Notes: a model not told the origin generated them from the sequence alone. Positions 431 through 31,581 are shown, counted from the first letter of the stretch. The stretch is DNA of 32,000 bases from Acaryochloris marina S15 (GCF_018336915.1 NZ_CP064923.1:2520001-2552000), one strand, 5' to 3'. Translations and numbers: made by a program.

Positions 431-557
431 GATGGGCTGCCCATTGTATTGCTGTTAGATTGTCACATCTCTAACGGTTGAATTGGCGTAACCCAGATTA
501 CTCAATAAGCACTGTTCGTTAGGGTCGTGGCTTCCGTGGGGGGAGAGGTATGAGGAT

Positions 558-2024
558 GAAAGCGTAATTTTTGTACATTATTCAAGTTTTTAGTGTTACT
601 CTATCTCTTGCAGAGGTTCGAGAGTAACGGTGAGAGATGGACTACGAATTTAGAGTGATTGTGGAGAAAGTTTCGGTTACCACTCAGGAAGTCGTTAAAC
701 GAGACACTCTAAAAATCTATGACATCAAGCAACCAGAATCTATTCTAGATCTAGGATTGCGTCACGAAGAACAAATCTCTCTGCTTTCCAAAGTCCAAAG
801 TGCTCTGTTATCCGAACAATCTACCCTCATCGATACTGGAGTTACGCAGTGCATCAAATGTGGTGGGAAAATAGGCAAGCTTGGTTTTCAACCATCTACA
901 TTCCATGCCGTCTTCAGCGATCATAAACTCCGTATCCAAAAACATCGGTGCAAGAATCCTGAGTGTCGATGGCAAAGTATGCCATCGGTGTTGAGCGTCT
1001 TTGGCACAGATACTCATCCTGACTTAGTAAAACTGCAATGTGAGAATGGTGCCTTGCATAGCTATCGAGAAGCTCAGGATAATATGGAGCGGCTGAATGC
1101 TCAGCGCCGGAGTGTGAATAACCATGTCCAAATCAAAAACGTGACCAATCAAGTCGGTGAGCGTTTATCTCAAGCGAACACTACCCCTCCAGATCAAGAA
1201 GAGTTACCCACCCCGGCAGCAGAACTCATTGCTCAAGTCGATGGGGGTCATATTCCTACCAAAGATAAAGACAAGCGCAGTTTTGAAGCCTTATCTGGCA
1301 TCGTTTATCGTCCTAGTGCCATTGAAGTAGTTGATAAACATCATCGCCAAATTACGGAAAAGACTTGTGTTGTTTCCGCCTTAGAGGATGAGTTGCAAAC
1401 CATCAAGACCTATCTGCATCATGCGGCACTTAAACAAGGGATGACAGAAGAGACACAGGTCACTGCCTTGGCCGATGGTGCTAGCAACTGCTGGTCAGTC
1501 ATCTCAGTTCTTGAGCCTCATTGCAAAGCATTAGAGCTGATCTTGGACTGGTTTCATATCGGCAAGAAATTCCGAAATGTCAGCAATGCACTGGGTGAAA
1601 CCTTTGCAGAATCCCTCGATAGTGCGAAGGGGAGTTTATGGCATGGAAAAGTAGATGATGCTCTGCAGAAGATTGCCATGCTTCGAGACAACATTTCAGA
1701 TGAGAAGAAGCAAACAAAGCTCAAAGGCTTATACGATTACTTAAAGAATAACAGTGAATATCTTGTCAATTATGACGAGCGAGATAAAGCGGGGCTAGCT
1801 TATACCAGTCAAGTTGCAGAATCTCATATTGACACCCTCATTAATGCTCGCCATAAAAAGAAGCAGAAGATGCAATGGACTCGGGTAGGTGCCCATAATG
1901 TCTTGCAAATCAGGGCGAGTATGATCAGTAATGAATGGAGTGATAATTGGCTAGATTTAGTTCTTCCTGAAGAAGAAAAAGCTGCTTGAGAATTAGGCTT
2001 TTAATGTAGGATATTTACGCTTAC
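558..2024 (+). mobile_element. IS copy 1 (1,467 bp; ISKra4-like, family tentative)
   Basis: Boundaries come from a three-way comparison of the copies. Identity starts at GAAAGCGTAATTTTTGTACATTA and ends at TAATGTAGGATATTTACGCTTAC. Imperfect terminal IRs match at about 18 of 23 positions (GWAAGCGTAA...TACATTA). Confidence 0.85.
637..1989 (+). CDS. IS transposase, 450 aa (zinc-finger CxxC...C...C region plus DDE-type core; ISKra4-like tentative)
   Basis: ORF track. The protein is identical to the ORFs at 7882-9234 and 10066-11418. It has a Cys-rich CIKCGG...CKNPEC segment and an LDWFH motif also present in the transposase at 5415-6806. Confidence 0.9.
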   Translation: MDYEFRVIVEKVSVTTQEVVKRDTLKIYDIKQPESILDLGLRHEEQISLLSKVQSALLSEQSTLIDTGVTQCIKCGGKIGKLGFQPSTFHAVFSDHKLRIQKHRCKNPECRWQSMPSVLSVFGTDTHPDLVKLQCENGALHSYREAQDNMERLNAQRRSVNNHVQIKNVTNQVGERLSQANTTPPDQEELPTPAAELIAQVDGGHIPTKDKDKRSFEALSGIVYRPSAIEVVDKHHRQITEKTCVVSALEDELQTIKTYLHHAALKQGMTEETQVTALADGASNCWSVISVLEPHCKALELILDWFHIGKKFRNVSNALGETFAESLDSAKGSLWHGKVDDALQKIAMLRDNISDEKKQTKLKGLYDYLKNNSEYLVNYDERDKAGLAYTSQVAESHIDTLINARHKKKQKMQWTRVGAHNVLQIRASMISNEWSDNWLDLVLPEEEKAA

Positions 2025-7846: not shown

Positions 7847-9313
7847 GTAAGCGTAAATATCCTACATTAAAAGCCTAATTCTCAAGCAGCTTTTTCTTCT
7901 TCAGGAAGAACTAAATCTAGCCAATTATCACTCCATTCATTACTGATCATACTCGCCCTGATTTGCAAGACATTATGGGCACCTACCCGAGTCCATTGCA
8001 TCTTCTGCTTCTTTTTATGGCGAGCATTAATGAGGGTGTCAATATGAGATTCTGCAACTTGACTGGTATAAGCTAGCCCCGCTTTATCTCGCTCGTCATA
8101 ATTGACAAGATATTCACTGTTATTCTTTAAGTAATCGTATAAGCCTTTGAGCTTTGTTTGCTTCTTCTCATCTGAAATGTTGTCTCGAAGCATGGCAATC
8201 TTCTGCAGAGCATCATCTACTTTTCCATGCCATAAACTCCCCTTCGCACTATCGAGGGATTCTGCAAAGGTTTCACCCAGTGCATTGCTGACATTTCGGA
8301 ATTTCTTGCCGATATGAAACCAGTCCAAGATCAGCTCTAATGCTTTGCAATGAGGCTCAAGAACTGAGATGACTGACCAGCAGTTGCTAGCACCATCGGC
8401 CAAGGCAGTGACCTGTGTCTCTTCTGTCATCCCTTGTTTAAGTGCCGCATGATGCAGATAGGTCTTGATGGTTTGCAACTCATCCTCTAAGGCGGAAACA
8501 ACACAAGTCTTTTCCGTAATTTGGCGATGATGTTTATCAACTACTTCAATGGCACTAGGACGATAAACGATGCCAGATAAGGCTTCAAAACTGCGCTTGT
8601 CTTTATCTTTGGTAGGAATATGACCCCCATCGACTTGAGCAATGAGTTCTGCTGCCGGGGTGGGTAACTCTTCTTGATCTGGAGGGGTAGTGTTCGCTTG
8701 AGATAAACGCTCACCGACTTGATTGGTCACGTTTTTGATTTGGACATGGTTATTCACACTCCGGCGCTGAGCATTCAGCCGCTCCATATTATCCTGAGCT
8801 TCTCGATAGCTATGCAAGGCACCATTCTCACATTGCAGTTTTACTAAGTCAGGATGAGTATCTGTGCCAAAGACGCTCAACACCGATGGCATACTTTGCC
8901 ATCGACACTCAGGATTCTTGCACCGATGTTTTTGGATACGGAGTTTATGATCGCTGAAGACGGCATGGAATGTAGATGGTTGAAAACCAAGCTTGCCTAT
9001 TTTCCCACCACATTTGATGCACTGCGTAACTCCAGTATCGATGAGGGTAGATTGTTCGGATAACAGAGCACTTTGGACTTTGGAAAGCAGAGAGATTTGT
9101 TCTTCGTGACGCAATCCTAGATCTAGAATAGATTCTGGTTGCTTGATGTCATAGATTTTTAGAGTGTCTCGTTTAACGACTTCCTGAGTGGTAACCGAAA
9201 CTTTCTCCACAATCACTCTAAATTCGTAGTCCATCTCTCACCGTTACTCTCGAACCTCTGCAAGAGATAGAGTAACACTAAAAACTTGAATAATGTACAA
9301 AAATTACGCTTTC
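7847..9313 (-). mobile_element. IS copy 2 (1,467 bp)
   Basis: Same ends as copy 1 in reverse complement (GTAAGCGTAAATATCCTAC at 7847; ...AAATTACGCTTTC ending at 9313). Confidence 0.85.
7882..9234 (-). CDS. IS transposase, 450 aa (identical to 637-1989)
   Basis: The ORF-track protein is identical to that of copies 1 and 3. Confidence 0.9.
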   Translation of the reverse strand: MDYEFRVIVEKVSVTTQEVVKRDTLKIYDIKQPESILDLGLRHEEQISLLSKVQSALLSEQSTLIDTGVTQCIKCGGKIGKLGFQPSTFHAVFSDHKLRIQKHRCKNPECRWQSMPSVLSVFGTDTHPDLVKLQCENGALHSYREAQDNMERLNAQRRSVNNHVQIKNVTNQVGERLSQANTTPPDQEELPTPAAELIAQVDGGHIPTKDKDKRSFEALSGIVYRPSAIEVVDKHHRQITEKTCVVSALEDELQTIKTYLHHAALKQGMTEETQVTALADGASNCWSVISVLEPHCKALELILDWFHIGKKFRNVSNALGETFAESLDSAKGSLWHGKVDDALQKIAMLRDNISDEKKQTKLKGLYDYLKNNSEYLVNYDERDKAGLAYTSQVAESHIDTLINARHKKKQKMQWTRVGAHNVLQIRASMISNEWSDNWLDLVLPEEEKAA

Positions 9314-10030: not shown

Positions 10031-11497
10031 GTAAGCGTAAATATCCTACATTAAAAGCCTAATTCTCAAGCAGCTTTTTCTTCTTCAGGAAGAACTAAAT
10101 CTAGCCAATTATCACTCCATTCATTACTGATCATACTCGCCCTGATTTGCAAGACATTATGGGCACCTACCCGAGTCCATTGCATCTTCTGCTTCTTTTT
10201 ATGGCGAGCATTAATGAGGGTGTCAATATGAGATTCTGCAACTTGACTGGTATAAGCTAGCCCCGCTTTATCTCGCTCGTCATAATTGACAAGATATTCA
10301 CTGTTATTCTTTAAGTAATCGTATAAGCCTTTGAGCTTTGTTTGCTTCTTCTCATCTGAAATGTTGTCTCGAAGCATGGCAATCTTCTGCAGAGCATCAT
10401 CTACTTTTCCATGCCATAAACTCCCCTTCGCACTATCGAGGGATTCTGCAAAGGTTTCACCCAGTGCATTGCTGACATTTCGGAATTTCTTGCCGATATG
10501 AAACCAGTCCAAGATCAGCTCTAATGCTTTGCAATGAGGCTCAAGAACTGAGATGACTGACCAGCAGTTGCTAGCACCATCGGCCAAGGCAGTGACCTGT
10601 GTCTCTTCTGTCATCCCTTGTTTAAGTGCCGCATGATGCAGATAGGTCTTGATGGTTTGCAACTCATCCTCTAAGGCGGAAACAACACAAGTCTTTTCCG
10701 TAATTTGGCGATGATGTTTATCAACTACTTCAATGGCACTAGGACGATAAACGATGCCAGATAAGGCTTCAAAACTGCGCTTGTCTTTATCTTTGGTAGG
10801 AATATGACCCCCATCGACTTGAGCAATGAGTTCTGCTGCCGGGGTGGGTAACTCTTCTTGATCTGGAGGGGTAGTGTTCGCTTGAGATAAACGCTCACCG
10901 ACTTGATTGGTCACGTTTTTGATTTGGACATGGTTATTCACACTCCGGCGCTGAGCATTCAGCCGCTCCATATTATCCTGAGCTTCTCGATAGCTATGCA
11001 AGGCACCATTCTCACATTGCAGTTTTACTAAGTCAGGATGAGTATCTGTGCCAAAGACGCTCAACACCGATGGCATACTTTGCCATCGACACTCAGGATT
11101 CTTGCACCGATGTTTTTGGATACGGAGTTTATGATCGCTGAAGACGGCATGGAATGTAGATGGTTGAAAACCAAGCTTGCCTATTTTCCCACCACATTTG
11201 ATGCACTGCGTAACTCCAGTATCGATGAGGGTAGATTGTTCGGATAACAGAGCACTTTGGACTTTGGAAAGCAGAGAGATTTGTTCTTCGTGACGCAATC
11301 CTAGATCTAGAATAGATTCTGGTTGCTTGATGTCATAGATTTTTAGAGTGTCTCGTTTAACGACTTCCTGAGTGGTAACCGAAACTTTCTCCACAATCAC
11401 TCTAAATTCGTAGTCCATCTCTCACCGTTACTCTCGAACCTCTGCAAGAGATAGAGTAACACTAAAAACTTGAATAATGTACAAAAATTACGCTTTC
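10031..11497 (-). mobile_element. IS copy 3 (1,467 bp)
   Basis: Same ends as copies 1 and 2. Confidence 0.85.
10066..11418 (-). CDS. IS transposase, 450 aa (identical to 637-1989)
   Basis: The ORF-track protein is identical to that of copies 1 and 2. Confidence 0.9.
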   Translation of the reverse strand: MDYEFRVIVEKVSVTTQEVVKRDTLKIYDIKQPESILDLGLRHEEQISLLSKVQSALLSEQSTLIDTGVTQCIKCGGKIGKLGFQPSTFHAVFSDHKLRIQKHRCKNPECRWQSMPSVLSVFGTDTHPDLVKLQCENGALHSYREAQDNMERLNAQRRSVNNHVQIKNVTNQVGERLSQANTTPPDQEELPTPAAELIAQVDGGHIPTKDKDKRSFEALSGIVYRPSAIEVVDKHHRQITEKTCVVSALEDELQTIKTYLHHAALKQGMTEETQVTALADGASNCWSVISVLEPHCKALELILDWFHIGKKFRNVSNALGETFAESLDSAKGSLWHGKVDDALQKIAMLRDNISDEKKQTKLKGLYDYLKNNSEYLVNYDERDKAGLAYTSQVAESHIDTLINARHKKKQKMQWTRVGAHNVLQIRASMISNEWSDNWLDLVLPEEEKAA

Positions 11498-11590
11498 ATT
11501 GCTGTCTCCATTCCTCTGACTAATGCACAGAAGTTTAGAGGTTGGCCTGGTCTGGTTAGGGGGAATGACCTGTCGAAATGATGGTTAGGG

Positions 11591-12167: not shown

Positions 12168-12548
12168 ATGATAGAAATCAGATGGCTGGAGAAGGATATC
12201 AGTATGACTTATGTATGTGAATTAGGCCCCGGCCACAGCATGTACCTTGACAACCAAGGTGCTCAGACCTTAGTCACTTTAATGATGGGTACTCCTGGAC
12301 AACAACAACAGTCTAGTAATAGTTTTGGAACAGGCTGTTGGACAGCTCCACCTGAAATTTATCGAACGCCCCAAGAATTCGTCATTAAAGTAACCACTAC
12401 TCACGGTGAGCAGTTTATCCAAGTGCAGGGCAGCAGCATGATTAGTATGACGAGCATCCCATCTTTGCAGAAGTCTCAACAGATACAAATAAACCTAAGT
12501 GAGGCGATCCCCTCTATTTCTGGTAGTGTCGCAAAAATAGAGTGTTGA
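12168..12548 (+). CDS. hypothetical protein whose 3' end is supplied by the IS6 left IR (probably truncated)
   Basis: ORF track (12162-12548), first ATG at 12168. The last 9 codons (SGSVAKIEC*) lie inside IS6 copy A, which starts at 12522. Confidence 0.3.
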   Translation: MIEIRWLEKDISMTYVCELGPGHSMYLDNQGAQTLVTLMMGTPGQQQQSSNSFGTGCWTAPPEIYRTPQEFVIKVTTTHGEQFIQVQGSSMISMTSIPSLQKSQQIQINLSEAIPSISGSVAKIEC

Positions 12549-13365
12549 CCGATAGACAGTGGTAAATTGAGAGGCTCTGTTCCTTTTCTCTCCCATCAAT
12601 GAAAACTACTGATCTGTTCAAATGGCGTCATTACCAATCTGAGATCATCCTGCTCAATGTTCGTTGGTATTGCCGTTATCCCCTCAGCTATAGAAATTTA
12701 GAAGAGATGATGATAGAGAGGGGCTTAGAGGTGGATCACAGCACCATCAATCGGTGGGTTCTCAAATATTCTCCTGAGCTAGACAAGCGCTGTCGTCGGC
12801 ATCTCAAGCCTACCAATGATTCTTGGAGAGTTGATGAAACTTACATCAAAATCCGTAAAAAGTGGCGATACCTATATCGAGCCGTAGACTCTGATGGCTA
12901 CACCCTCGACTTTTTACTCACAGCAAAGCGGGATGCTAAGGCTGCGAAGCGCTTTCTGACTAAAGCACTGAATGCCGTTCATACCCATGAACCTCGGGTG
13001 ATCAATGTGGACAAGAATCCAGCATATCCTCCTGCTGTTGAGCAGTTACAGGAAGAGGAACGTATCCCTGAAGGAGTAAAAGTACGGCAGGTAAAATACC
13101 TCAATAATATAGTGGAGCAAGATCATCGTGGCATTAAAAGTCTCGTGAACCCTGGTATGGGATTTGGATCGTTTAACTCGGCTAGACGAACCTTAAAAGG
13201 GTATGAAGCGATGAACATGATCCGTAAAGGTCAGATCAAAAATGTGGGCAAAGATGATGTGGTAGGACAGATCTCTTTTATCAATCAAATCTTCGGATTA
13301 GCTGCATAGTCTCGGATAGAAATCTGAGGAGTTTTGTAACTGGAAGCATTTTTTGCGACACAACC
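12522..13365 (+). mobile_element. IS6-family IS, copy A (844 bp, boundary +/-1)
   Basis: Boundaries come from comparison with copy B. IRs are GGTAGTGTCGCAAAAA (left) and GGTTGTGTCGCAAAAA (right, reverse complement), resembling the IS26-type GGCACTGTTGCAAA end. Confidence 0.9.
12599..13309 (+). CDS. IS6-family transposase, 236 aa
   Basis: MKTTDLFKWRHYQSEIILLNVRWYCRYPLSYRNLEEMMIERGLEVDHSTINRWV...WRVDETYIKI...YLYRAVD is a typical IS6/IS26-like sequence. Confidence 0.95.
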   Translation: MKTTDLFKWRHYQSEIILLNVRWYCRYPLSYRNLEEMMIERGLEVDHSTINRWVLKYSPELDKRCRRHLKPTNDSWRVDETYIKIRKKWRYLYRAVDSDGYTLDFLLTAKRDAKAAKRFLTKALNAVHTHEPRVINVDKNPAYPPAVEQLQEEERIPEGVKVRQVKYLNNIVEQDHRGIKSLVNPGMGFGSFNSARRTLKGYEAMNMIRKGQIKNVGKDDVVGQISFINQIFGLAA

Positions 13366-16300
13366 ATCATTACTGAACGAGATATCTTGCAATTACAAAC
13401 CTTAGGGATTCCTACGACCACTACATTCGTTGAGCAGGTCATGAGTAGCCCACTATTTTTTGTCGATCCTAGAGATAGCCTGTGGTCGGTTTATCAACAA
13501 ATGCATCACCATCACATCCGCCGCATGGTGGTGGTTGATTCAAATAATAGTAATCATCTCTTGGGGATTGTCAATCAAGATGATCTGCTCCATTTATTCG
13601 ACCCATTGGCGATGAATGAGACCCCGCAAGTACAGGTTGAGCCGTTTAAACAAGAAAAAATCAACCTATTGCAGGACTGGAATCATGGCTTGGAACAGCA
13701 ACAACAGTTGCTAGAGGATATTATCCTTGCCAAGGATCGAGCCCAGCTATTGGAACAACAGAATCTTCGACTTCAACAGGAAATTAAAGACAAGGAGCAA
13801 GCAGAAGCAGAATTAAACCAACAAATTGAGCAGGAAAGGCTACTACGACTTATTACCCAAGACATTCATAGCACCAGAGATATTAAGGAACTGCAGTCTC
13901 TTGTTGTCAATCAAGTCCGTCAGACGGTTAGGGCAGATCGAGCTTTGCTGTTTCGCTTAATGCCAGGAGGGGGAGGCATCATTCTTGAGGAATCTGTTCT
14001 CCCTAGCTATCCTGCTATGGAAGAGCTAGATGGTGAAGATCAAGATTTCCCACCTGAATGCTATGAGTTTTATCTCCAAAGAAAACCGCGAATCGTTTTG
14101 GACTTACACCAAGACGACTGGAGTCATTGCTTAAAACAATTCTGGATGCCAGCCCAGGTCAAATCTAAGATTGTGGCCCCCATTGTGCAATCCCAAAATC
14201 ATGGCCACAAAAGGTTATGGGGGTTATTAGTGGTTCATGCCTGTGACTATCCTCGGGTATGGCAGCCAGATGAAGCTTTATTCCTGCAGCAAGTGGCCAA
14301 TCAATTTGCAGTTGCGATTCAACAAGCTGACTTAGCTATACAGTTACAGCAAGAATTAGTAGAACGGCAACAGAGCGATCTAGCTCTAGCTCAAGAGTTA
14401 CAACGATCGCAGCTTTTAGGTAAAATCACTCAGAAAATCCATGAAAGTCTGGATAGCCTTCATGTTTTTGAAACGGCAGTAGTAGAAATTCGTCGCGCTC
14501 TTAAAGCGAGTCGATGCAACATTTTTGTCTATAGTGCTGTGGATGACCCTCATTTCTCTTTGATGTTCCATGATTATGAAGCAGATTATCCAGACCAAGG
14601 ACCAGAGATTGTCCGCTTAGCCGATCATGAGTATGTGCGGCAACTGGCAAACCAACCAGAAGCAATTGCCAGCCCCCAGGCTCAATCCGATCCATTATTG
14701 GTAAGTTGCTTGCCAATGGTTGAAGCCCTTTCCATTCAATCTATGGTTAGTATTCGCACGTCTTACCAAGGCAATGTGAATGGAGCGATTACGATTAGCC
14801 AATGCGATCGCATCCGGGATTGGACCCCCGAGGAATTAGACTTACTCACTGCAGTCGCCACAGAAGTGGGCATTGCCCTAGCCCACGCCAACTTACTCAC
14901 CCAAGAACTCCACCAGCGAGAACAACTCTCTCAAAAGAACCAACAACTACATACTGAAATCGAAGAGAAGAAACAAACACAGACCCTTCTCAAACTCGTG
15001 ATGGATTCCATTCCTCAAGCCATTTTTTGGAAGGACAGAACCTCTCGCTATTTAGGGTGTAATCGTGCTTTTGCCAAAGAAGCGGGTTTTAACACTGCAG
15101 AAGAGATTATTGGCAAAACTGACCAAGAGATGCCTTGGCCACCGGAAGAAGCAGAATGGTATCGGCTTTCTGATCTAGAAGTCATAAACTCCAACCAACC
15201 CCAATTCCATGTCCTTGAAACTCAGCTACGCGCCGACGGGACAAAAACGTGGATGGACACCAATAAAGTCCCTCTTCATAACCCTAAAGGAAAAGTGGTA
15301 GGGGTTTTGGGAACTGCCGAAGATATTACAGAGCGGATTCAGGTCGAAGCCGAGTTGCAGCAACAACTCCAACGAGAACAGGTCTTATCCGAAATTACCA
15401 ACCAAATTCGTCAGAGCCTCGATCTGGACATCCTTTTAAAATCTGCAGTAGAACAGCTCTGTGCTTTATTCCAAGTCAGTCGGTGTTCCTTTTTTACTTA
15501 CACTGACCAGCCCAACCCTCAACTCGTACTCTCTGCCCAAGCCTATTCACAGCCAGAATGGGAAGCTGCTCTTTCTCATCCCCTCCTCACCTCAGATCAT
15601 CCTCGTCTTTTAAAGTTACTTGCGAATGATCGAGTTCGCCCTGTGTCTGATATTTGGCAAGAGCCTAGTCTGGCGACATCAGAAAAAGAAAGCCTGTCTT
15701 CTACCCTAAGAATTAGAGCCTATCTCAGCGTTAGAACAGCCTTTAAAAATCATCCAAATGGCATTATATTCCTCGACCAATGCGAGCGCAGACGGAATTG
15801 GACCAAAGATGAAGTCTCTTTATTGGGAACAGTTGCAGCCCAGCTAGGGATTGCTGTTGCCCATGCTGATTTATTAGCGGATGAACAGAAGCAGCGTCAG
15901 GACTTAAAACTTCAGAACCGCCGCCTGCAGGAAGAGATCGCCCATCGAAATCAGGCCGAGAAAGCATTAGCAAAGCAACTCGAAAAAGCTGAACTGTTAG
16001 AGAAAATTGTTCAACAAATTCGGCAAAGTCTTGAACCACAGTTAATTTTCCGCACTGCCGTGACTCAGGTACGACAATTACTAGCTGCAGATCGCGTCTG
16101 CATCTATCGATTTATAGAGGATACGGACCACGCCCAAGGCATGATGGTCGCAGAAGAAGTACTCCCAGAGTTTCCATCTGCCCTGACAGCCCATGTGCGA
16201 GACCGATGCTTTGGTGACCAATATGCAAATCGTTATCAGAGCGGTCGCTTCCAGGCTGTTGCCGATATTCATGAAGCTGGCCTTAGTGATTGCCATATTG

Positions 16301-24948: not shown

Positions 24949-25055
24949 CGACCCAGCTTTTAACTCAGTCTTGCTCGCCAGCAGCGGTTTCAATCAAGCA
25001 CCCTTCGTCAAGGATTGGACGATCTTGAGAGATTCGTCAATATGGCCTTGGAAGT

Positions 25056-25899
25056 GGTTGTGTCGCAAAAAATGCTTCCAGTTACAAAACTCCTCAGATT
25101 TCTATCCGAGACTATGCAGCTAATCCGAAGATTTGATTGATAAAAGAGATCTGTCCTACCACATCATCTTTGCCCACATTTTTGATCTGACCTTTACGGA
25201 TCATGTTCATCGCTTCATACCCTTTTAAGGTTCGTCTAGCCGAGTTAAACGATCCAAATCCCATACCAGGGTTCACGAGACTTTTAATGCCACGATGATC
25301 TTGCTCCACTATATTATTGAGGTATTTTACCTGCCGTACTTTTACTCCTTCAGGGATACGTTCCTCTTCCTGTAACTGCTCAACAGCAGGAGGATATGCT
25401 GGATTCTTGTCCACATTGATCACCCGAGGTTCATGGGTATGAACGGCATTCAGTGCTTTAGTCAGAAAGCGCTTCGCAGCCTTAGCATCCCGCTTTGCTG
25501 TGAGTAAAAAGTCGAGGGTGTAGCCATCAGAGTCTACGGCTCGATATAGGTATCGCCACTTTTTACGGATTTTGATGTAAGTTTCATCAACTCTCCAAGA
25601 ATCATTGGTAGGCTTGAGATGCCGACGACAGCGCTTGTCTAGCTCAGGAGAATATTTGAGAACCCACCGATTGATGGTGCTGTGATCCACCTCTAAGCCC
25701 CTCTCTATCATCATCTCTTCTAAATTTCTATAGCTGAGGGGATAACGGCAATACCAACAAACATTGAGCAGGATGATCTCAGATTGGTAATGACGCCATT
25801 TGAACAGATCAGTAGTTTTCATTGATGGGAGAGAAAAGGAACAGAGCCTCTCAATTTACCACTGTCTATCGGTCAACACTCTATTTTTGCGACACTACC
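25056..25899 (-). mobile_element. IS6-family IS, copy B (844 bp, boundary +/-1), inverted relative to copy A
   Basis: Same IRs as copy A. At least one difference was seen: 25759 A versus the complement of 12662 C. Confidence 0.9.
25112..25822 (-). CDS. IS6-family transposase, 236 aa (R22C relative to copy A)
   Basis: ORF track. The protein is identical to 12599-13309 except NVRWY versus NVCWY. Confidence 0.95.
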   Translation of the reverse strand: MKTTDLFKWRHYQSEIILLNVCWYCRYPLSYRNLEEMMIERGLEVDHSTINRWVLKYSPELDKRCRRHLKPTNDSWRVDETYIKIRKKWRYLYRAVDSDGYTLDFLLTAKRDAKAAKRFLTKALNAVHTHEPRVINVDKNPAYPPAVEQLQEEERIPEGVKVRQVKYLNNIVEQDHRGIKSLVNPGMGFGSFNSARRTLKGYEAMNMIRKGQIKNVGKDDVVGQISFINQIFGLAA

Positions 25900-26149
25900 T
25901 GAATTTGAATTGGCTCAAAGCAAATCGACTCAAACCGAATCACTGATAACACCCGATCTTGCTCATTCGCTAACTTCACCAAAGCCACAATCAGCACTTT
26001 TGACCATAAATCTCGGACTCAAGCATGGCCTGTTGTTGACCATAAACGGGCTTCCCTTAAATAGTCAAAAATCCAACTAGCTAGCCCCATTGGGATGAGT
26101 TGATGTTGGTATGTGCAACAATCAATACACCGCAAACACTTGACGAACT

Positions 26150-26686
26150 ATGGCACCCAAATTTGACTATATGAATGACAGTGGAGCCGCTGACGTTGGG
26201 CAAAGTATCTTCGAGGAAATATCGGAATCCAGAGAGGAGCCTATTGCCGCATCACCCCGGATTGAAATCAAAAAAGTGGAAGTAGAATCCACAACTAAAA
26301 GGAACGGTCAATTGTTTGGAGTAAAGGAGAACGTTCGCTTTGCCGTACCTAATTGCAACCTATCGGTCTTAACTGAAATCGATTGGGACGAACTATCAGT
26401 TTGGGCAGACGAGACTATCAAGCAGTACTTAAAGCTAATGAACCCAGAGCTGATGCCTCTATTCCAACGAGACAATAAGAAGAAGAAGTTCAAGCCAGCG
26501 AGTACTCAAAGTCCTTGCAGCTTGGCTGAGAGATACCCTTGTTATGTAGAGCTAAAGCAGGCGAGGGGCAATATGCTGTATGTTCATTCTAAATTGCCTA
26601 ACTCAGATCGACTGTGGAAAAATACTTTTTGGTACTGCTGGGCTGAGGATGTGAATCGGGTCGAAGCTGGTCTGAAGAAGAAATAA
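26150..26686 (+). CDS. hypothetical protein (178 aa, acidic N-terminus, KKKK patch)
   Basis: ORF track only. No motif recognised. Confidence 0.4.
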   Translation: MAPKFDYMNDSGAADVGQSIFEEISESREEPIAASPRIEIKKVEVESTTKRNGQLFGVKENVRFAVPNCNLSVLTEIDWDELSVWADETIKQYLKLMNPELMPLFQRDNKKKKFKPASTQSPCSLAERYPCYVELKQARGNMLYVHSKLPNSDRLWKNTFWYCWAEDVNRVEAGLKKK

Positions 26687-27883: not shown

Positions 27884-28378
27884 TCACCATAAAACTGAAT
27901 ATCCAGGATGGCCTTGGAGATTATTGTTCTTCGGGGCAGGTGCATCCCAGATCAACTTAAATCGCTCCAATCCTTTTGGGCTGATATCGATCTCGCCATC
28001 TGTCAATATCAGTTCACCATTGGCGAAGGTTGAACCCGCCGCATTAAGGATACCAATAAACTCATCGTGCTCTGTAATAACAGAAACATATCGCTTCAAG
28101 CCACTGTAAGAATATATCTGCGAAATTTGCCCCATAGTGCCAGGATAATGTTCGAATAACACTCGAATGTAGAGAGAGAGGAGGGGCATTGGATCGTCGA
28201 TGCCAAACACGGCATTGCAGATGCAGGTCGATGTTGTCAGCATCCAAGTGGCAATCTTTTTGGGATCGGTAGAGCGGTCTCGTGCCATCTCCAAAAGGAG
28301 ATCCATCATATTATTCCTGAAGGGAACATCCAAACGAGTTTCTAAGTTTTTCCAGACGGCTAAAGTATTAGGATCCAT
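27884..28378 (-). CDS. hypothetical protein (164 aa)
   Basis: Longest ORF at this locus. No motif recognised. Confidence 0.4.
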   Translation of the reverse strand: MDPNTLAVWKNLETRLDVPFRNNMMDLLLEMARDRSTDPKKIATWMLTTSTCICNAVFGIDDPMPLLSLYIRVLFEHYPGTMGQISQIYSYSGLKRYVSVITEHDEFIGILNAAGSTFANGELILTDGEIDISPKGLERFKLIWDAPAPKNNNLQGHPGYSVLW

Positions 28379-28981: not shown

Positions 28982-29926
28982 TTATTTTGATGCACTCGGT
29001 AAATGTAGCAAGCGCTCACCATCACGAAAGAGCCAATCAAACCACAATTTGAGTAACTGGTGACCCTCTAGTTTAAGTGGTACTTCAAGGGCTTCCAGAG
29101 CCTTATCACGATGATCTAATGCTCGCATCATCAATCGACCACGAACATCGTGACTGTCCAGTAGTTGGCGAATAGCCATGTCGTCACGGTATTTCTGGGC
29201 ACACAGTTTTGATAGTGTTTCACTCGTTTTACATCCATGCTCCATGCCTAAAAGCACCGGGTATGTATATTGTTCGTGCCCAGGATCTTCAGCATTGTCC
29301 GGGAACCAGAACGCCTCAATATCATCAAGAATTTGCTGAGCCCAGCCGATATGCCGACCACAGACTCGACATCTCTCAATTGCTTTGGCATCAGCAGTGA
29401 CAGCATTTGCACCCGTAACTGCTGCAAGCTCATAAGCAGCAACAGTTTTTAACTCAACAACTTCCTCATATGCTGCCAAAGACCGAACCTCTCGCCGAAT
29501 GTCTCTATCCTGTCCCTTACACACCCGAAGCAGAGCGTCAAAGTAGTCTCTTGTCATGAGGTCGCTATCTGGTGATGCTTTGGAGAGCAGTCCAATCTCT
29601 CGTGAAGCTAATGTAATTAGCGCAGCAGAGAAATTTGCTGCACGTCCAATACCTATTTGTTGATATAAAGCACTAGGGTTATCCTGGTCAGCTATATCAT
29701 CGAGAGTACGAAGTGCAAAGGCGACTGCAACGATAGCTGATGTGATAGGAATTAGATGTTCCGTAGAGCCACCACATGCATAGCCAGTGGCTACAGGTAA
29801 GGTCGCTACAGGTGGAAGCGGGTCTGGAAGAGTGGTAGACATTAATTCTCCCAAAGCAATATCAACATCACTAGCGAGAGTAATAACTCTGAGACGAATT
29901 GCATGGAGGATGTCTTGTGGGGTCAT
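28982..29926 (-). CDS. polyprenyl-synthase / class I isoprenoid-synthase-fold protein (divergent)
   Basis: ACGGSTEHLIPITSAIVAVAFALRTLDDIADQD (first DDxxD), CKGQDRDI, VELKTVAAYELAAVTGA, and QQILDDIEAFW (degenerate second Asp-rich motif, DDxxA). Confidence 0.65.
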   Translation of the reverse strand: MTPQDILHAIRLRVITLASDVDIALGELMSTTLPDPLPPVATLPVATGYACGGSTEHLIPITSAIVAVAFALRTLDDIADQDNPSALYQQIGIGRAANFSAALITLASREIGLLSKASPDSDLMTRDYFDALLRVCKGQDRDIRREVRSLAAYEEVVELKTVAAYELAAVTGANAVTADAKAIERCRVCGRHIGWAQQILDDIEAFWFPDNAEDPGHEQYTYPVLLGMEHGCKTSETLSKLCAQKYRDDMAIRQLLDSHDVRGRLMMRALDHRDKALEALEVPLKLEGHQLLKLWFDWLFRDGERLLHLPSASK

Positions 29927-29935
29927 AAAGTCTAA

Positions 29936-31417
29936 TTAGAAATTTAATTCAATGCGTTTTGTGTCTTTTGCTGCATTAAGACGAGTGACCTGATCGCGAT
30001 AGTGGTTCGTTTTAGCTACTCCGATATAGTCTGAAAAATTCTCACATGGGAAAAACTTTCCGAATGCGTCAAATTCATCGCTCTTGCCTGCTTCTTTGAA
30101 AAACGGCTCTACTTCTGCGAAAGTATTTCTGGCGAGCTGAAAGCTATCCCATTCGTAGTATTCTTGGATAGCTGCACGCCACTCTTCAGGTGTAGTGGGA
30201 TTCAATGGATTTAGAGAGTCCACTTCCCAATCAGATAATTTCACTCCACTTTCAAAATCACCTTTTTCATAAGCATTTTTAACTTTCGCAAACCGAGTAT
30301 GCTGAATAGCATTTGCAGTTTCGAAAATTGCGTTCAAAGCAGTAGTAGTGTTATGTCCTTTCGCAAGTCGGACCTCATGGCTTTCGGGATCATATGAACC
30401 CGATGTTCCCTTCTGAGCTGTCTTGTAGGTAACCCCTGCTTTCGCTTTGAGTTTTGCAAACTCCTCGGATTTATCGAGGATTGCTTTGACGATGACTCCT
30501 GGTTTACTACCTGCTCCTACTAACTCATCTTTAAGCTCGGTCGGGCTACTTGTACCGCAACAGCGATGCACCCGACCTACAGGGGATTCGTTGATTATCT
30601 CAGTGGGCTGACCAAAAGCAATTGCACTCCTCTTAGCCTGATCCTTGGATGGTAGCCGACTCATGGATACTTTACTTCTGTTGGCTTGAATCGCGCCATT
30701 CTGCTGTACTACATGGGTCAACTCATGAGCAATCAGCTCTTGTCCAACACGGTTCCCAGGCTGATATGCTCCCTCTCGGAAAAACATATCCTGACCCGTC
30801 GTAAATGCCCTCGCCTGAATCGATTGATTTAACTGGTCTGACTGGGTATCTGTATGCACCCGTACTCCACTAAAATCAGCACCCATTGCCTGACCCATTG
30901 ACTGCTGCAATTCTGAATTCAATGGCTGTCCACTACCCCTGGCTCTATTGATAGTAGACTCTAAATCTGGCGATGCTTCTTCACCTGCTATTGCTTGCCG
31001 CCGCTGGATGGCAGCACGAAGACTTTTCGCTTGTATTTCATCTTCTGGTCTTTTCTCCCGTTGAATTGACTGATCTTGATTTAATTGAGAAGAATTAGGA
31101 GCATTGATTTGATAAACCACTTGAGAAGCAACTCTATCCGCTTCTTGTTCATATTTATCTCCTGGCTGCCCAAGCGTTAGCTTCCGCTGAATCCAAGGTT
31201 GTGCTAAGTCTCCGGATGGGTTAGGAACTTTATCCATCCAGGGCGTTCCAAACCGTGCCCATTTCTCCTGCTGAGCTTTCCATTCTGCTAAACCCTCTTC
31301 ATTTGTCTTTGCTTGAATAGCAGGTACTACTGGAGCTGTTGATTGAATTTGGTCTAGTGATTTTGCCTGTGGTATCGGTTGAGATTTCTCTGGCTGAGAA
31401 GAATGTGTACGCTTCAT
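29936..31417 (-). CDS. DUF4157 (eCIS-core / zincin-like HExxH) domain protein with a ~250-aa C-terminal domain of unknown function
   Basis: IQRKLTLGQPGDKYEQEADRVASQV ... MGADFSGVRVHTDTQSDQLNQSIQARAFTTGQDMFFREGAYQPGNRVGQELIAHELTHVVQQ is the DUF4157 signature as I recall it. The stop codon is 9 nt before the start of the next gene. Confidence 0.75.
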   Translation of the reverse strand: MKRTHSSQPEKSQPIPQAKSLDQIQSTAPVVPAIQAKTNEEGLAEWKAQQEKWARFGTPWMDKVPNPSGDLAQPWIQRKLTLGQPGDKYEQEADRVASQVVYQINAPNSSQLNQDQSIQREKRPEDEIQAKSLRAAIQRRQAIAGEEASPDLESTINRARGSGQPLNSELQQSMGQAMGADFSGVRVHTDTQSDQLNQSIQARAFTTGQDMFFREGAYQPGNRVGQELIAHELTHVVQQNGAIQANRSKVSMSRLPSKDQAKRSAIAFGQPTEIINESPVGRVHRCCGTSSPTELKDELVGAGSKPGVIVKAILDKSEEFAKLKAKAGVTYKTAQKGTSGSYDPESHEVRLAKGHNTTTALNAIFETANAIQHTRFAKVKNAYEKGDFESGVKLSDWEVDSLNPLNPTTPEEWRAAIQEYYEWDSFQLARNTFAEVEPFFKEAGKSDEFDAFGKFFPCENFSDYIGVAKTNHYRDQVTRLNAAKDTKRIELNF

Positions 31418-31581
31418 CTACTGTCCCCTATCCGAAATCGAATCACCTTCCTTCAATCCTAAACCCAAGGAAATAATTACTACGATAGGAAATGTGCTAA
31501 CTCAAATAGTAGTTGATTCACTCCCAGATCCGGGCCAACCACTCCCGACCCAGATACGCCACGACCATCTACTCGATCTGC

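Follow-up and report, generated by a model that had tools for sequence, protein, structure and literature searches.

In Acaryochloris marina, a polymorphic-effector gene is paired with a candidate linker-specific prenyltransferase

The two genes and their surroundings

The window (the whole 32-kb stretch of Acaryochloris marina S15 DNA that we analysed) contains two co-oriented genes on the minus strand. [quoted passage not shown] A first-pass annotation of the sequence had described these genes as an operon. Both open reading frames are indeed where it placed them, and the second gene begins 9 nucleotides downstream of the first (TAA-TTAGACTTT-ATG), in the same reading frame. That the two genes form a unit is borne out by the recurrence of the pair in about 20 independent loci, which is more than expected by chance. 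The features of the locus are:

29936..31417, minus strand: DUF4157/eCIS_core protein, 493 aa (open reading frame)
30926..31417, minus strand: N-terminal region of this protein, aa 1-164, a putative loading region (from composition and motif positions)
30692..30925, minus strand: DUF4157/eCIS_core zincin-like domain, aa 165-242 (PF13699)
30560..30658, minus strand: conserved pre-toxin linker, aa 254-286, RLPSKDQAKRSAIAFGQPTEIINESPVGRVHRC (from linker alignments)
29939..30520, minus strand: rare C-terminal module, aa ~300-493, a probable toxin domain (from sequence search and conserved residues)
28982..29926, minus strand: trans-isoprenyl-diphosphate-synthase-fold protein, 314 aa, proposed to be a linker-specific prenyltransferase (open reading frame, PF00348, and fold)
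29681..29701, minus strand: first Asp-rich motif of this protein, DDIADQD, aa 76-82 (from alignment)
29300..29338, minus strand: pseudo-second Asp-rich motif, QQILDDIEAFWFP, aa 197-209 (from alignment)
29009..31468, minus strand: cassette in common with Acaryochloris marina MBIC11017 (blastn against locus L011)

Comparing the window to the MBIC11017 locus with blastn gave a single match of 2,468 nucleotides, at 81% identity, and nothing else. The flanks of the cassette are unrelated between the two strains of A. marina, and the neighboring genes differ. Both genes in the window are under purifying selection (dN/dS = 0.095 for the effector gene and 0.18 for the enzyme gene). Also, the first 60 amino acids of the 493-aa protein are conserved in MBIC11017, which supports the start codon (ATG) at position 31417. 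NCBI's annotation of the effector gene gives a 433-aa version. A scan of the cassette for promoters and terminators found nothing above the shuffled expectation. The OmpR-type regulator that had been noticed upstream is real (Trans_reg_C, E = 1e-26), and its open reading frame runs off the end of the window.

DUF4157 effectors are the commonest marker of the toxins of contractile injection systems. The window itself has no structural genes for an injection system, as had been noted: across the 32 kb, no open reading frame of at least 100 amino acids contains such a domain. Genes for eCIS cargo are recognized by their place within or next to an operon for sheath, tube, baseplate, and AAA ATPase, and the pair in the window has no such place. 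Geller et al. 2021 (Supplementary Data 6) list an eCIS in 0 of 2 Acaryochloris genomes. Among the homologous pairs, the one in L020 forms the 3' end of an eCIS-like operon, beside baseplate-like genes, and the one in L005 adjoins a WHD+AAA ATPase. Most of the homologous pairs stand alone, as orphan cassettes surrounded by housekeeping genes.

The effector-like protein and its linker

The 493-aa protein is comprised of a disordered N-terminal region, a DUF4157 zincin domain, a linker, a spacer, and a C-terminal module. The zincin domain is a strong match to PF13699 (eCIS_core; E = 2e-31, 108.4 bits against a cutoff of 22) and contains the zinc-binding motif HExxH, as HELTH (aa 231-235). We found nothing in Pfam, NCBIfam, or PADLOC that matches amino acids 243-493, so the initial description of this gene, as a DUF4157 protein of the polymorphic-effector type with a C-terminal module that cannot be assigned, holds up. 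(The PADLOC models for defence systems did not match the 493-aa protein or the 314-aa protein.) The N-terminal region is rich in Q, A, S, P, and E and contains GDKYEQEAD (with YEQEAD at aa 89-94); by analogy, we consider it to be a putative loading region. In the AlgoCIS cargo proteins Cgo1 and Cgo2, the loading signal is formed by disordered N-terminal domains.

The C-terminal module is probably a toxin domain, and it is rare. With the C-terminal 255 amino acids as the query, a word-indexed search for homologs recovered the protein itself and no other. An exhaustive search of representative sequences was needed to identify any relatives, and it found just 14 representatives among 1.84 billion proteins. 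Profile searches against PDB and Pfam scans with all 14 members of this domain gave no match. FETANAxQ is an invariant signature of the domain (FETANAIQ in the window's copy, aa 365-372), and QEYYEW is a second motif (aa 418-423). FETANAIQ is part of ALNAIFETANAIQH, which had been singled out as reminiscent of a degenerate HExxH helix. The sequence is present, and FETANAxQ serves here as the signature of a toxin-like domain; none of our tests linked it to HExxH. The module's dN/dS is 0.043.

The linker is about 35 amino acids long and has two forms, RLPS...GR[IV]HRC or RLPS...VRQFxC. In the linker alignments, the R and the P of RLPS are invariant, and the terminal residue is cysteine in about 18 of 22 sequences. 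(The exceptions are asparagine in L016, L018, and L023; threonine in P0027; and L026, in which it is shifted by one residue.) The RCCG motif that had been attributed to the C-terminal domain is present at amino acids 285-288, but it is the end of the conserved linker. The linker does not contain tryptophan. In a distant subgroup, the effector in L033 has RRW at the boundary that corresponds to the linker's end. Where CTD-A proteins have no linker (P0029 and P0031), a glycine-zipper-like hydrophobic segment is found at the same position before the toxin, which fits a membrane-anchoring role for this position.

The synthase-fold protein and its conserved partner

The 314-aa protein matches the polyprenyl_synt family of Pfam (PF00348; E = 1e-12, 48.4 bits against a cutoff of 27). 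The predicted structure from AlphaFold2 (pLDDT 90.5) is similar to geranylgeranyl and octaprenyl diphosphate synthases (TM 0.75-0.80 from Foldseek), and Ord1 is also among the structural matches (TM 0.73). In sequence comparisons, GGPP synthases from archaea and bacteria are nearer to the family than Ord1 is. In the model, the first helix of the fold begins right at the N-terminus, and there is no disordered loading region ahead of it.

The first-pass annotation had reported that the first DDxxD motif is intact (DDIAD) and that the second is degenerate (DDIEA). We confirmed both, at amino acids 76-80 and 201-205. Across 33 non-identical sequences from this family (roughly 30-80% identity), the invariant residues are R73, D76, D80, D82, Q139, K160, Q198, D202, and W207. 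The second motif has the pattern Q198-x-x-(D/N)201-D202-x-E-(A/S/G), that is, its first position is D or N (ND in the distant subgroup and in L026), and the third aspartate is always replaced by A, S, or G. So, the site for the allylic diphosphate and Mg is kept (D76, D80, D82, Q139, K160, Q198, and D202). In contrast, the family has no equivalents of K45/R48, H77, or R95/R96 of E. coli IspA. (We verified that our reference sequence for IspA is identical to PDB 1RQJ.) In IspA, GGKRxR, the histidine before the first motif, and the RRG after it are the residues that bind the diphosphate of isopentenyl diphosphate (IPP). In the window's enzyme, the segment equivalent to GGKRxR is LPDPLPP and the position of H77 is alanine. 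The canonical RRG is deleted, and R73 lies just before the first motif.

Furthermore, the protein missed all of the cutoffs for NCBIfam's equivalog models. The best of these was NF041169, with 56 bits against a cutoff of 450, and we rejected an encapsulin cargo prenyltransferase on this basis. Models for GGPP synthases, FPP synthases, and long-chain synthases gave 14-36 bits against cutoffs of 275-600. Because of these scores and the absence of the IPP-site residues, an ordinary GGPP or FPP synthase was also rejected, and the earlier view of the protein as a divergent, non-canonical member of the isoprenoid-synthase fold stands. No model named for ComQ appeared among the NCBIfam matches with E ≤ 0.1, in a library that is not confirmed to hold one. 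Judging from the sequence, the enzyme's residue pattern resembles that of the ComQ/PalQ/Ord1 class of synthase-fold prenyltransferases.

The roughly 20 loci with this pair belong to three phyla: they come from Cyanobacteria, from Chloroflexota, and from a betaproteobacterial MAG. For every close relative of the 314-aa protein with upstream DNA available, an effector-like protein is encoded directly upstream, and it always bears the linker (the window and L011, L005, L007, L009, L013, L014, L015, L016, L017, L018, L022, L023, L025, and L026). In two of these loci (L014 and L026), a small gene of the YbjN family intervenes between the effector and the enzyme. When loci L001-L018 were searched for the motif, the linker turned up nowhere except in the gene upstream of the enzyme. 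A linker-only profile, being too short, gave no match among 5.8 billion proteins (E up to 10), and our census of linker-bearing proteins is incomplete.

The reverse holds as well. We considered seven linker-bearing proteins that had been chosen independently, through their C-terminal domain (P0019, P0020, P0021, P0022, P0024, P0026, and P0027), and all of them are followed by the enzyme family, with the caveats that P0019 and P0026 are cut by the ends of contigs and that the copy of the enzyme after P0027 is frameshifted. As a control, P0029 (in L010) has the same C-terminal domain and no linker, and the next gene is unrelated and encodes 341 amino acids. This is the one testable case of its kind, as the contig of P0031 is too short to be informative. 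It had been proposed to check whether the C-terminal domain is always paired with the synthase-like gene, and in L010, it is unpaired.

The toxin modules upstream of the enzyme belong to at least six unrelated types: FETANAxQ, RamC_N (which is presumably related to the OspF-type lyases), GLDPxxGG, and no fewer than three further types. Variation extends to the N-terminal modules, which may be the classic DUF4157, a variant of DUF4157 with HEAWH, or LQRTIGN alone. The enzymes that follow these unrelated toxin domains are orthologous, with 38-50% identity to the window's enzyme. In a neighbor-joining tree, the enzymes group by the subtype of the linker (GRIHRC or VRQFxC) and not by toxin type or phylum. 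In the homologous loci that we examined, the synthase-like gene is never in the context of isoprenoid or carotenoid genes. Thus, the enzyme's conserved partner is the linker of about 35 amino acids, irrespective of the toxin domain.

Proposed prenylation of the effector and comparison with known systems

We tentatively propose that the locus combines a polymorphic effector with an accessory enzyme that is dedicated to its linker, and that the enzyme most likely prenylates the effector. From the sequence comparisons, we would put this at somewhat less than an even chance. The proposal builds on the anatomy of the locus, the fold of the enzyme, the residues that it has kept and lost, the adjacency of linker and enzyme irrespective of the toxin, and the purifying selection. 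The locus would be a mobile two-gene cassette. Its first gene would encode a polymorphic effector of the eCIS-associated type, with an exchangeable and rare toxin-like C-terminal module behind a flexible spacer. The product of the second gene would have lost the site for isopentenyl diphosphate, and hence for chain elongation, while keeping the site for Mg and the allylic diphosphate; it would bind the unstructured linker and transfer a prenyl group onto it from a cellular prenyl diphosphate. The prime candidate for the acceptor is the cysteine that ends the linker, and the alternative is the invariant arginine of RLPS. Because the terminal cysteine is not universal, S-prenylation cannot be the universal chemistry. 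The outcome would be a lipidated effector, whose toxin module could gain affinity for membranes.

The first-pass annotation had mentioned, as an alternative, that the pair might make or process a prenylated product. The evidence favors that direction, and the catalysis is what we infer, as are the prenyl donor, the acceptor residue, the purpose of the modification, and the route of delivery. A more specific form of this proposal, which is possible although we find it rather doubtful, is that these are pre-lipidated polymorphic toxins: the portable linker (RLPS...R-x-[HF]-x-C) would be prenylated, mostly at its terminal cysteine, so that any toxin that is swapped in would arrive already anchored to the membrane.

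Alternatively, the synthase-fold protein might be a non-catalytic adaptor or chaperone, which would bind the linker and either stabilise the effector or pass it to the delivery machine. An association that tracks the linker and not the toxin is the genetic signature of an adaptor; chaperone-like roles around DUF4157 effectors have been proposed in the literature; and the linker has neither a conserved tryptophan nor a universal cysteine. However, a protein that serves only as a scaffold would have little reason to conserve residues for binding metal and diphosphate, and those of this family are invariant in all 33 sequences. We also ran AlphaFold2 on a 62-aa linker fused to the enzyme, and no confident docking was predicted (pLDDT about 30, in the range 26-44, for the linker), although this is a weak test as the alignment had depth for the enzyme only. 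We consider an adaptor to be unlikely.

It is more unlikely still that the enzyme is a second effector that rides along on the cargo's linker and consumes or alters the prenyl diphosphates of the target cell (such as FPP or undecaprenyl-PP). This would explain why the allylic-diphosphate site is kept without the IPP site, why the gene adjoins injection-type effectors (including at the end of the eCIS-like operon in L020), and why most of the loci have no immunity-like gene. But the lack of a gene for self-protection also counts against a toxic enzyme, which moreover has no disordered N-terminal loading region, and its co-diversification with the linker subtype would have no explanation beyond binding.

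We also think it quite improbable that the protein is a metabolic enzyme, that is, an unusual prenyl-diphosphate or terpene synthase with a small isoprenoid as its product, linked to the effector by coincidence or for reasons of regulation. It does pass Pfam's threshold for polyprenyl_synt, its nearest structures are GGPP and octaprenyl-PP synthases, and its homologs are annotated as GGPP synthases in the source databases. Yet the IPP-binding residues are missing, with RRG deleted; the scores fall short of the equivalog cutoffs by at least about 400 bits; and across three phyla, the gene always lies directly behind a linker-bearing effector and never in an isoprenoid or carotenoid context.

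Finally, the gene order and the tight spacing are typical of toxin-immunity pairs, and the first-pass annotation had raised the idea that the downstream protein neutralises the toxin domain, but this can be dismissed as extremely improbable, because this enzyme family is found behind six or more unrelated toxin domains, is absent when the same toxin domain occurs without the linker (P0029, the one testable case), is accompanied by a separate small YbjN-family gene in L014 and L026, and has a tree that follows the type of linker and not the type of toxin. These data suggest that the enzyme modifies (probably lipidates) the toxin rather than acting as its antidote.

If the linker is prenylated as we propose, it would be the first non-tryptophan and whole-protein substrate for the synthase-fold prenyltransferases, which would extend them from small tryptophan-containing pheromone peptides to large proteins with a new acceptor. 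It would also be the first case of an effector prenylated by a bacterially encoded enzyme. Polymorphic toxins would have a new modular element, a linker that comes with an enzyme of its own, beside trafficking domains, toxin domains, and immunity genes. Such an enzyme would be of interest for protein-lipidation biocatalysis, and a portable tag with its enzyme could be used to lipidate engineered cargo of injection systems. Should the enzyme prove to be only an adaptor, the strict association of linker and enzyme would still be useful for annotation and would prevent misannotation as GGPP synthase. In the literature that we searched, we found nothing relevant that connects prenyl or polyprenyl synthases to contractile injection, DUF4157, or polymorphic toxins, or contractile injection to Acaryochloris, and the eCIS literature that we searched mentions neither the linker nor the synthase-fold partner.

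Like the canonical synthases, such as the GGPP synthase of P. horikoshii (1WY0) and IspA of E. coli (1RQJ), the window's enzyme contains the GQxxD, KT, and Q..DD motifs as well as the first Asp-rich motif, and it shares their fold (TM 0.78 to 1WY0). Unlike them, its family lacks GGKRxR, the equivalent of His77, and RRG (a deletion of about 4-6 amino acids, depending on the template); the third aspartate of the second motif is lost, as is, mostly, the lysine after that motif; and the genomic context is never metabolic.

The effector is similar to eCIS cargo and EATs (the AlgoCIS proteins Cgo1 and Cgo2; Geller et al. 2021) in having a disordered N-terminus, DUF4157, and a variable C-terminal effector domain, and it is also of similar size (493 aa, as compared to 498 aa for Cgo1). 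In contrast to such cargo, it is encoded in a window without injection-system genes, and most of the homologous loci are orphan cassettes. The adaptors and chaperones of type VI secretion (Eag/DUF1795, DUF4123, and DUF2169) track a conserved, non-toxic segment of the effector while the toxins are swapped. The genetic logic is the same, with an accessory gene beside a polymorphic effector, but the fold is unrelated, the active site of the window's enzyme is strictly conserved, and the accessory gene is downstream instead of upstream.

Some injected effectors of Legionella and Salmonella carry a C-terminal CaaX box and are prenylated by the host's alpha/beta farnesyl- or geranylgeranyl-transferase. 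The concept would be similar, in that an injected effector is targeted to membranes by its prenyl lipid. The differences would be that the proposed enzyme is bacterial and has a different fold, and that it would modify an internal linker before delivery.

The closest parallels to the proposed activity are ComQ/ComX, PalQ, the P domain of ChrPC, StheQ/StheX, and Ord1, with which the window's enzyme has the all-alpha IPPS fold in common. ComQ, PalQ, StheQ, and Ord1 prenylate acceptors that are not IPP, and StheQ, ComQ, and Ord1 were described as having the glutamine and a pseudo-second motif (NDxxx). The window's enzyme is like the ComQ class and Ord1 in that the first Asp motif is kept, the second is (N/D)D-x-x-non-Asp with a glutamine one helical turn upstream, and chain elongation is lost, or in the window's enzyme predicted to be lost. 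As in the ComQ class, the gene for the enzyme adjoins the gene for the presumed polypeptide substrate. The characterised synthase-fold peptide prenyltransferases all act on tryptophan, in short pheromone or RiPP peptides. In contrast, the partner here is an effector (300-700 aa in the family and 493 aa in the window) whose conserved segment has no tryptophan, rather than a short tryptophan-containing precursor, and the family has two invariant features of its own: R73, which precedes the first motif, and an E-x-x-W-F-P extension that follows the second.

The two genes and their surroundings

Both genes of the cassette are on the minus strand at the positions given by the first-pass annotation. 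The ORF calls place them in the same frame, with a 9-nt gap between them:

29936..31417, minus strand: 493-aa ORF, DUF4157 protein
28982..29926, minus strand: 314-aa ORF, polyprenyl-synthase-fold protein (the enzyme)

The first protein is catalogued in the database as an Acaryochloris marina DUF4157 protein. The NCBI version (P0001) has 433 amino acids and starts at Met61, so the longer ORF has an extra 60 codons (31238-31417). Because these codons are kept in A. marina MBIC11017, and because the nucleotide match already starts 51 nt before the ATG at 31417, the comparison favours the 493-aa start. The cassette is all that the window has in common with MBIC11017 (29009-31468, 81% nucleotide identity), and the flanks are unrelated. 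Between the two strains, dN/dS is 0.095 for the 493-aa gene and 0.18 for the 314-aa gene (dS near 0.8-0.95), and because of these ratios we conclude that both genes are under purifying selection.

The 493-aa protein has the following parts:

residues 1-164: N-terminal region rich in Q/A/S/P/E, with a GDKYEQEAD motif
residues 165-242: complete PF13699 eCIS_core/DUF4157 domain (Pfam, E=2e-31), with HELTH at 231-235
residues 254-286: linker, RLPSKDQAKRSAIAFGQPTEIINESPVGRVHRC
directly after the linker: short spacer rich in G/S/P/T
residues ~300-493: C-terminal domain, with invariant FETANAxQ, QExxEW and a C-terminal His

The full-length PF13699 match bears out the initial reading of this gene. The C-terminal domain had been described as unassignable, and indeed nothing in Pfam, NCBIfam, PADLOC or the PDB sequences matches it. 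It is very rare, with 14 representatives in 1.84 billion proteins. Related proteins carry it behind a classic DUF4157, a HEAWH variant of DUF4157 or just an LQRTxGN N-terminus, some with the linker and some without. The domain thus acts like a polymorphic-toxin module that can be swapped. The key element of the protein turned out to be the linker.

The gene content of the window is cyanobacterial (a CP43/IsiA-like gene, a flavodoxin, a pentapeptide-repeat protein and a large GAF/PAS hybrid kinase). The OmpR-type regulator reported upstream of the cassette is real, and its gene continues past the window's end. As also reported, contractile-injection structural domains are absent from the window's ORFs of at least 100 aa. 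Two ORFs between the cassette and an IS6 copy, of 164 aa (27884-28378, minus strand) and 178 aa (26150-26686, plus strand), have no Pfam or NCBIfam match and no counterpart in what the window shares with MBIC11017. Two kinds of insertion sequence are present:

556-2024 (plus), 7847-9313 (minus) and 10031-11499 (minus): three 100% identical copies of ~1,468 nt, each with a 450-aa UPF0236-like transposase
12513-13366 and 25055-25908, in inverted orientation: two 100% identical IS6-family (DDE_Tnp_IS240) copies of 854 nt

The identity of the three ~1,468-nt copies indicates very recent transposition. The 11.7 kb between the IS6 copies encodes a 1,552-aa CBS/PAS/GAF hybrid histidine kinase, PadR, cytochrome-b-like and CP43/IsiA-like proteins, a flavodoxin, a hydrolase and a Crp regulator; the arrangement looks like a composite transposon with an iron-stress-type gene set.

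Genes next to the enzyme in other genomes

The enzyme belongs to a small family, with 17 clusters in 5.8 billion proteins, 8 loci in 185,579 species genomes, and 14 loci in JGI metagenomes. We found that every close enzyme (38-80% identity) having upstream sequence lies directly behind an effector-like gene with the linker (RLPS...GR[IV]HRC or RLPS...VRQFxC). These pairs occur in A. marina MBIC11017 (L002/L011); a second A. marina genome (GCA_024347835.1, L001), whose enzyme is identical; Cyanobacteria UBA2566 (L016); Nostoc C117 (L017); Spirulina CCY15215 (L018); Aggregatilineales (L007/L012), Chloroflexota (L013/L024) and betaproteobacterial (L015) MAGs; and metagenomes and public read assemblies (L005, L009, L022, L023, L025). 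In a Pseudanabaena locus (L014, 7513-7947) and in L026 (1254-1727), a small YbjN-family (PF10722) gene lies between effector and enzyme. These are the only loci with this insert, and they have one particular C-terminal domain in common, which the YbjN-family protein may serve as cognate immunity protein or as chaperone.

In the reverse direction, the enzyme follows each of the linker proteins that were found independently, via the C-terminal domain (P0019, P0020, P0021, P0022, P0024, P0026 and P0027). P0019 and P0026 are cut by contig ends, and the enzyme copy behind P0027 is frameshifted. In this last locus (L021, 5001-7757), the linker is the only one to end in Thr (GRVHRT), and the enzyme gene is split over two frames, either as a pseudogene or, alternatively, through a possible error of the 6.75x assembly. 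A control protein with the same C-terminal domain but without the linker (P0029; L010, 5001-6176) is followed by an unrelated 341-aa gene. The linker-bearing proteins, all reached via the enzyme or the C-terminal domain, are a partial census; six-frame translations of L001-L018 contain no further copy of the motif, and six other DUF4157 proteins of the loci compared here lack it.

The linker is followed by mutually unrelated C-terminal modules (FETANAxQ, RamC_N, GLDPxxGG and at least three further types, one with faint PARP/Tpt1 hints below threshold). In a neighbour-joining tree without bootstrap values, the enzymes group by linker subtype (GR[IV]HRC vs VRQFxC), not by toxin type or phylum. 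For the first-pass annotation, its reading would fall if the C-terminal domain and the synthase-like gene failed to co-occur elsewhere. This is half the case: the two do co-occur, but only where the linker is present, and the enzyme also accompanies other domains. The comparative genomics indicates that the 314-aa protein is a partner of the linker and does not serve the C-terminal domain as its immunity protein.

The effector of L007/L012 (5698-6897) lacks DUF4157 and has an LQRTIGN N-terminus, the linker and a RamC_N domain (35.5 bits, cutoff 27). Class III lanthipeptide synthetases have an OspF-like lyase domain that belongs to the RamC_N family. Through the relation of this family to the OspF-type phosphothreonine lyases, the effector would have an activity directed at eukaryotes. 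C-terminal domains of L022 (2376-3944), L009, L016, L018, L023, L025 and L027 contain a (Y/F)H(T/G)T...SIL..GL(D/K)P motif; their matches to PARP/Tpt1 (E=0.011 and 0.11, below threshold) are hints of ADP-ribosyltransferase-like toxins. A distant enzyme subgroup (L029, L030, L033, L034; also P0017 and P0018; 31-34% identity) has an NDMES pseudo-second motif, as in ComQ. It also adjoins DUF4157 effectors, with another conserved post-zincin segment (ending T[LI]R, then RC, RW or GSIPSC). In L033 the gene order is effector, 325-aa gene, CxxCxxCC (PF03692) protein, enzyme.

In L020, an eCIS-like operon (Tail_P2_I, DUF6519) has the pair at its 3' end, and in L005 the pair comes just after a WHD+AAA ATPase gene. 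Of the other loci, most (the window among them) are orphan cassettes amid housekeeping genes, and the Acaryochloris part of Supplementary Data 6 of Geller et al. gives eCIS in 0/2 genomes. Because of this, we read the eCIS label of the 493-aa protein, a putative effector, as the name of its family (PF13699) and not as a demonstrated delivery route in A. marina S15.

Active site and possible role of the enzyme

The 314-aa protein scores 48 bits against polyprenyl_synt (Pfam, threshold 27), but it falls under every NCBIfam equivalog cutoff by ~400 bits or more. Its AlphaFold2 model (pLDDT 90.5) resembles GGPP/octaprenyl-PP synthases (TM 0.75-0.80) and the indole prenyltransferase Ord1 (TM 0.73). 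We set the family profile against E. coli IspA (reference sequence identical to PDB 1RQJ). The first Asp-rich motif (D76, D77, D80, D82), GQ (Q139), KT (K160) and Q198-x-x-D201-D202 are kept. In contrast, the GGKRxR segment is gone (it reads LPDPLPP), the His77 equivalent is absent, a deletion removes the RRG that would follow the first motif, the second motif has A, S or G in place of its third Asp, and the Lys after that motif is usually missing. In FPP synthases such as IspA, the residues lost here bind IPP, and those kept bind Mg2+ and the allylic diphosphate. R73, D76, D80, D82, G138, Q139, K160, Q198, D202 and W207 are invariant in 33 non-identical members (to ~30% identity). As first proposed, this is a divergent synthase-fold protein: it has the IPPS fold, yet fails the defining features of a chain-elongating enzyme.

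We propose, at somewhat less than even chances, that the unstructured linker is the substrate of the enzyme, which would recognise and prenylate it to yield a lipidated effector. Several points favour this: a chemistry-competent site is conserved and the IPP site is gone; in ComQ, PalQ and StheQ the substrate is the product of the adjacent gene; and Cys is the last linker residue in ~18/22 sequences, followed by the flexible spacer. Also, in P0029 and P0031, which lack the linker, its place before the toxin module is taken by a hydrophobic, glycine-zipper-like stretch (GGxxGxxxG repeats). However, only the R and P of RLPS are invariant; one clade (L016, L018, L023) ends in Asn-Gly-Gly in place of Cys, and P0027 in Thr; the acceptor is Trp in all characterised enzymes of the ComQ-type class; and AlphaFold2 did not dock the linker when it was fused to the enzyme (a weak test). 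In the enzymes of the Asn clade, ALY after the first motif becomes SLD, and KTVAAY becomes KT[LI]PAY; these changes correlate with the linker ending, if not cleanly.

The enzyme could instead be a non-catalytic adaptor or chaperone, which we consider unlikely. It is more doubtful that it is a co-delivered toxin acting on the target's prenyl diphosphates, and more doubtful again that it makes a small-molecule isoprenoid. An immunity protein that neutralises the C-terminal toxin domain, the partner favoured by the first-pass annotation, is very improbable given the unrelated modules in front of the same enzyme family and the unrelated neighbour of P0029.

Comparison with known systems

The 493-aa protein has the same plan as the AlgoCIS cargo Cgo1 (disordered N-terminus, DUF4157, variable C-terminus, ~500 aa). 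Cgo1 is loaded by means of a signal in its N-terminal region and does not need DUF4157 for this. No paper in our literature searches connects DUF4157, eCIS or polymorphic toxins with a polyprenyl-synthase-like partner. ComQ-family prenyltransferases and Ord1 keep the first motif and have an (N/D)Dxxx pseudo-second motif with a Gln one turn upstream (StheQ preprint and 2026 review), and the 314-aa family has this pattern as well. By this likeness, the 314-aa protein probably works like the ComQ-type enzymes; it is at most a candidate member of that class. What would be new here is our proposal that a synthase-fold transferase has been recruited to a portable pre-toxin linker.
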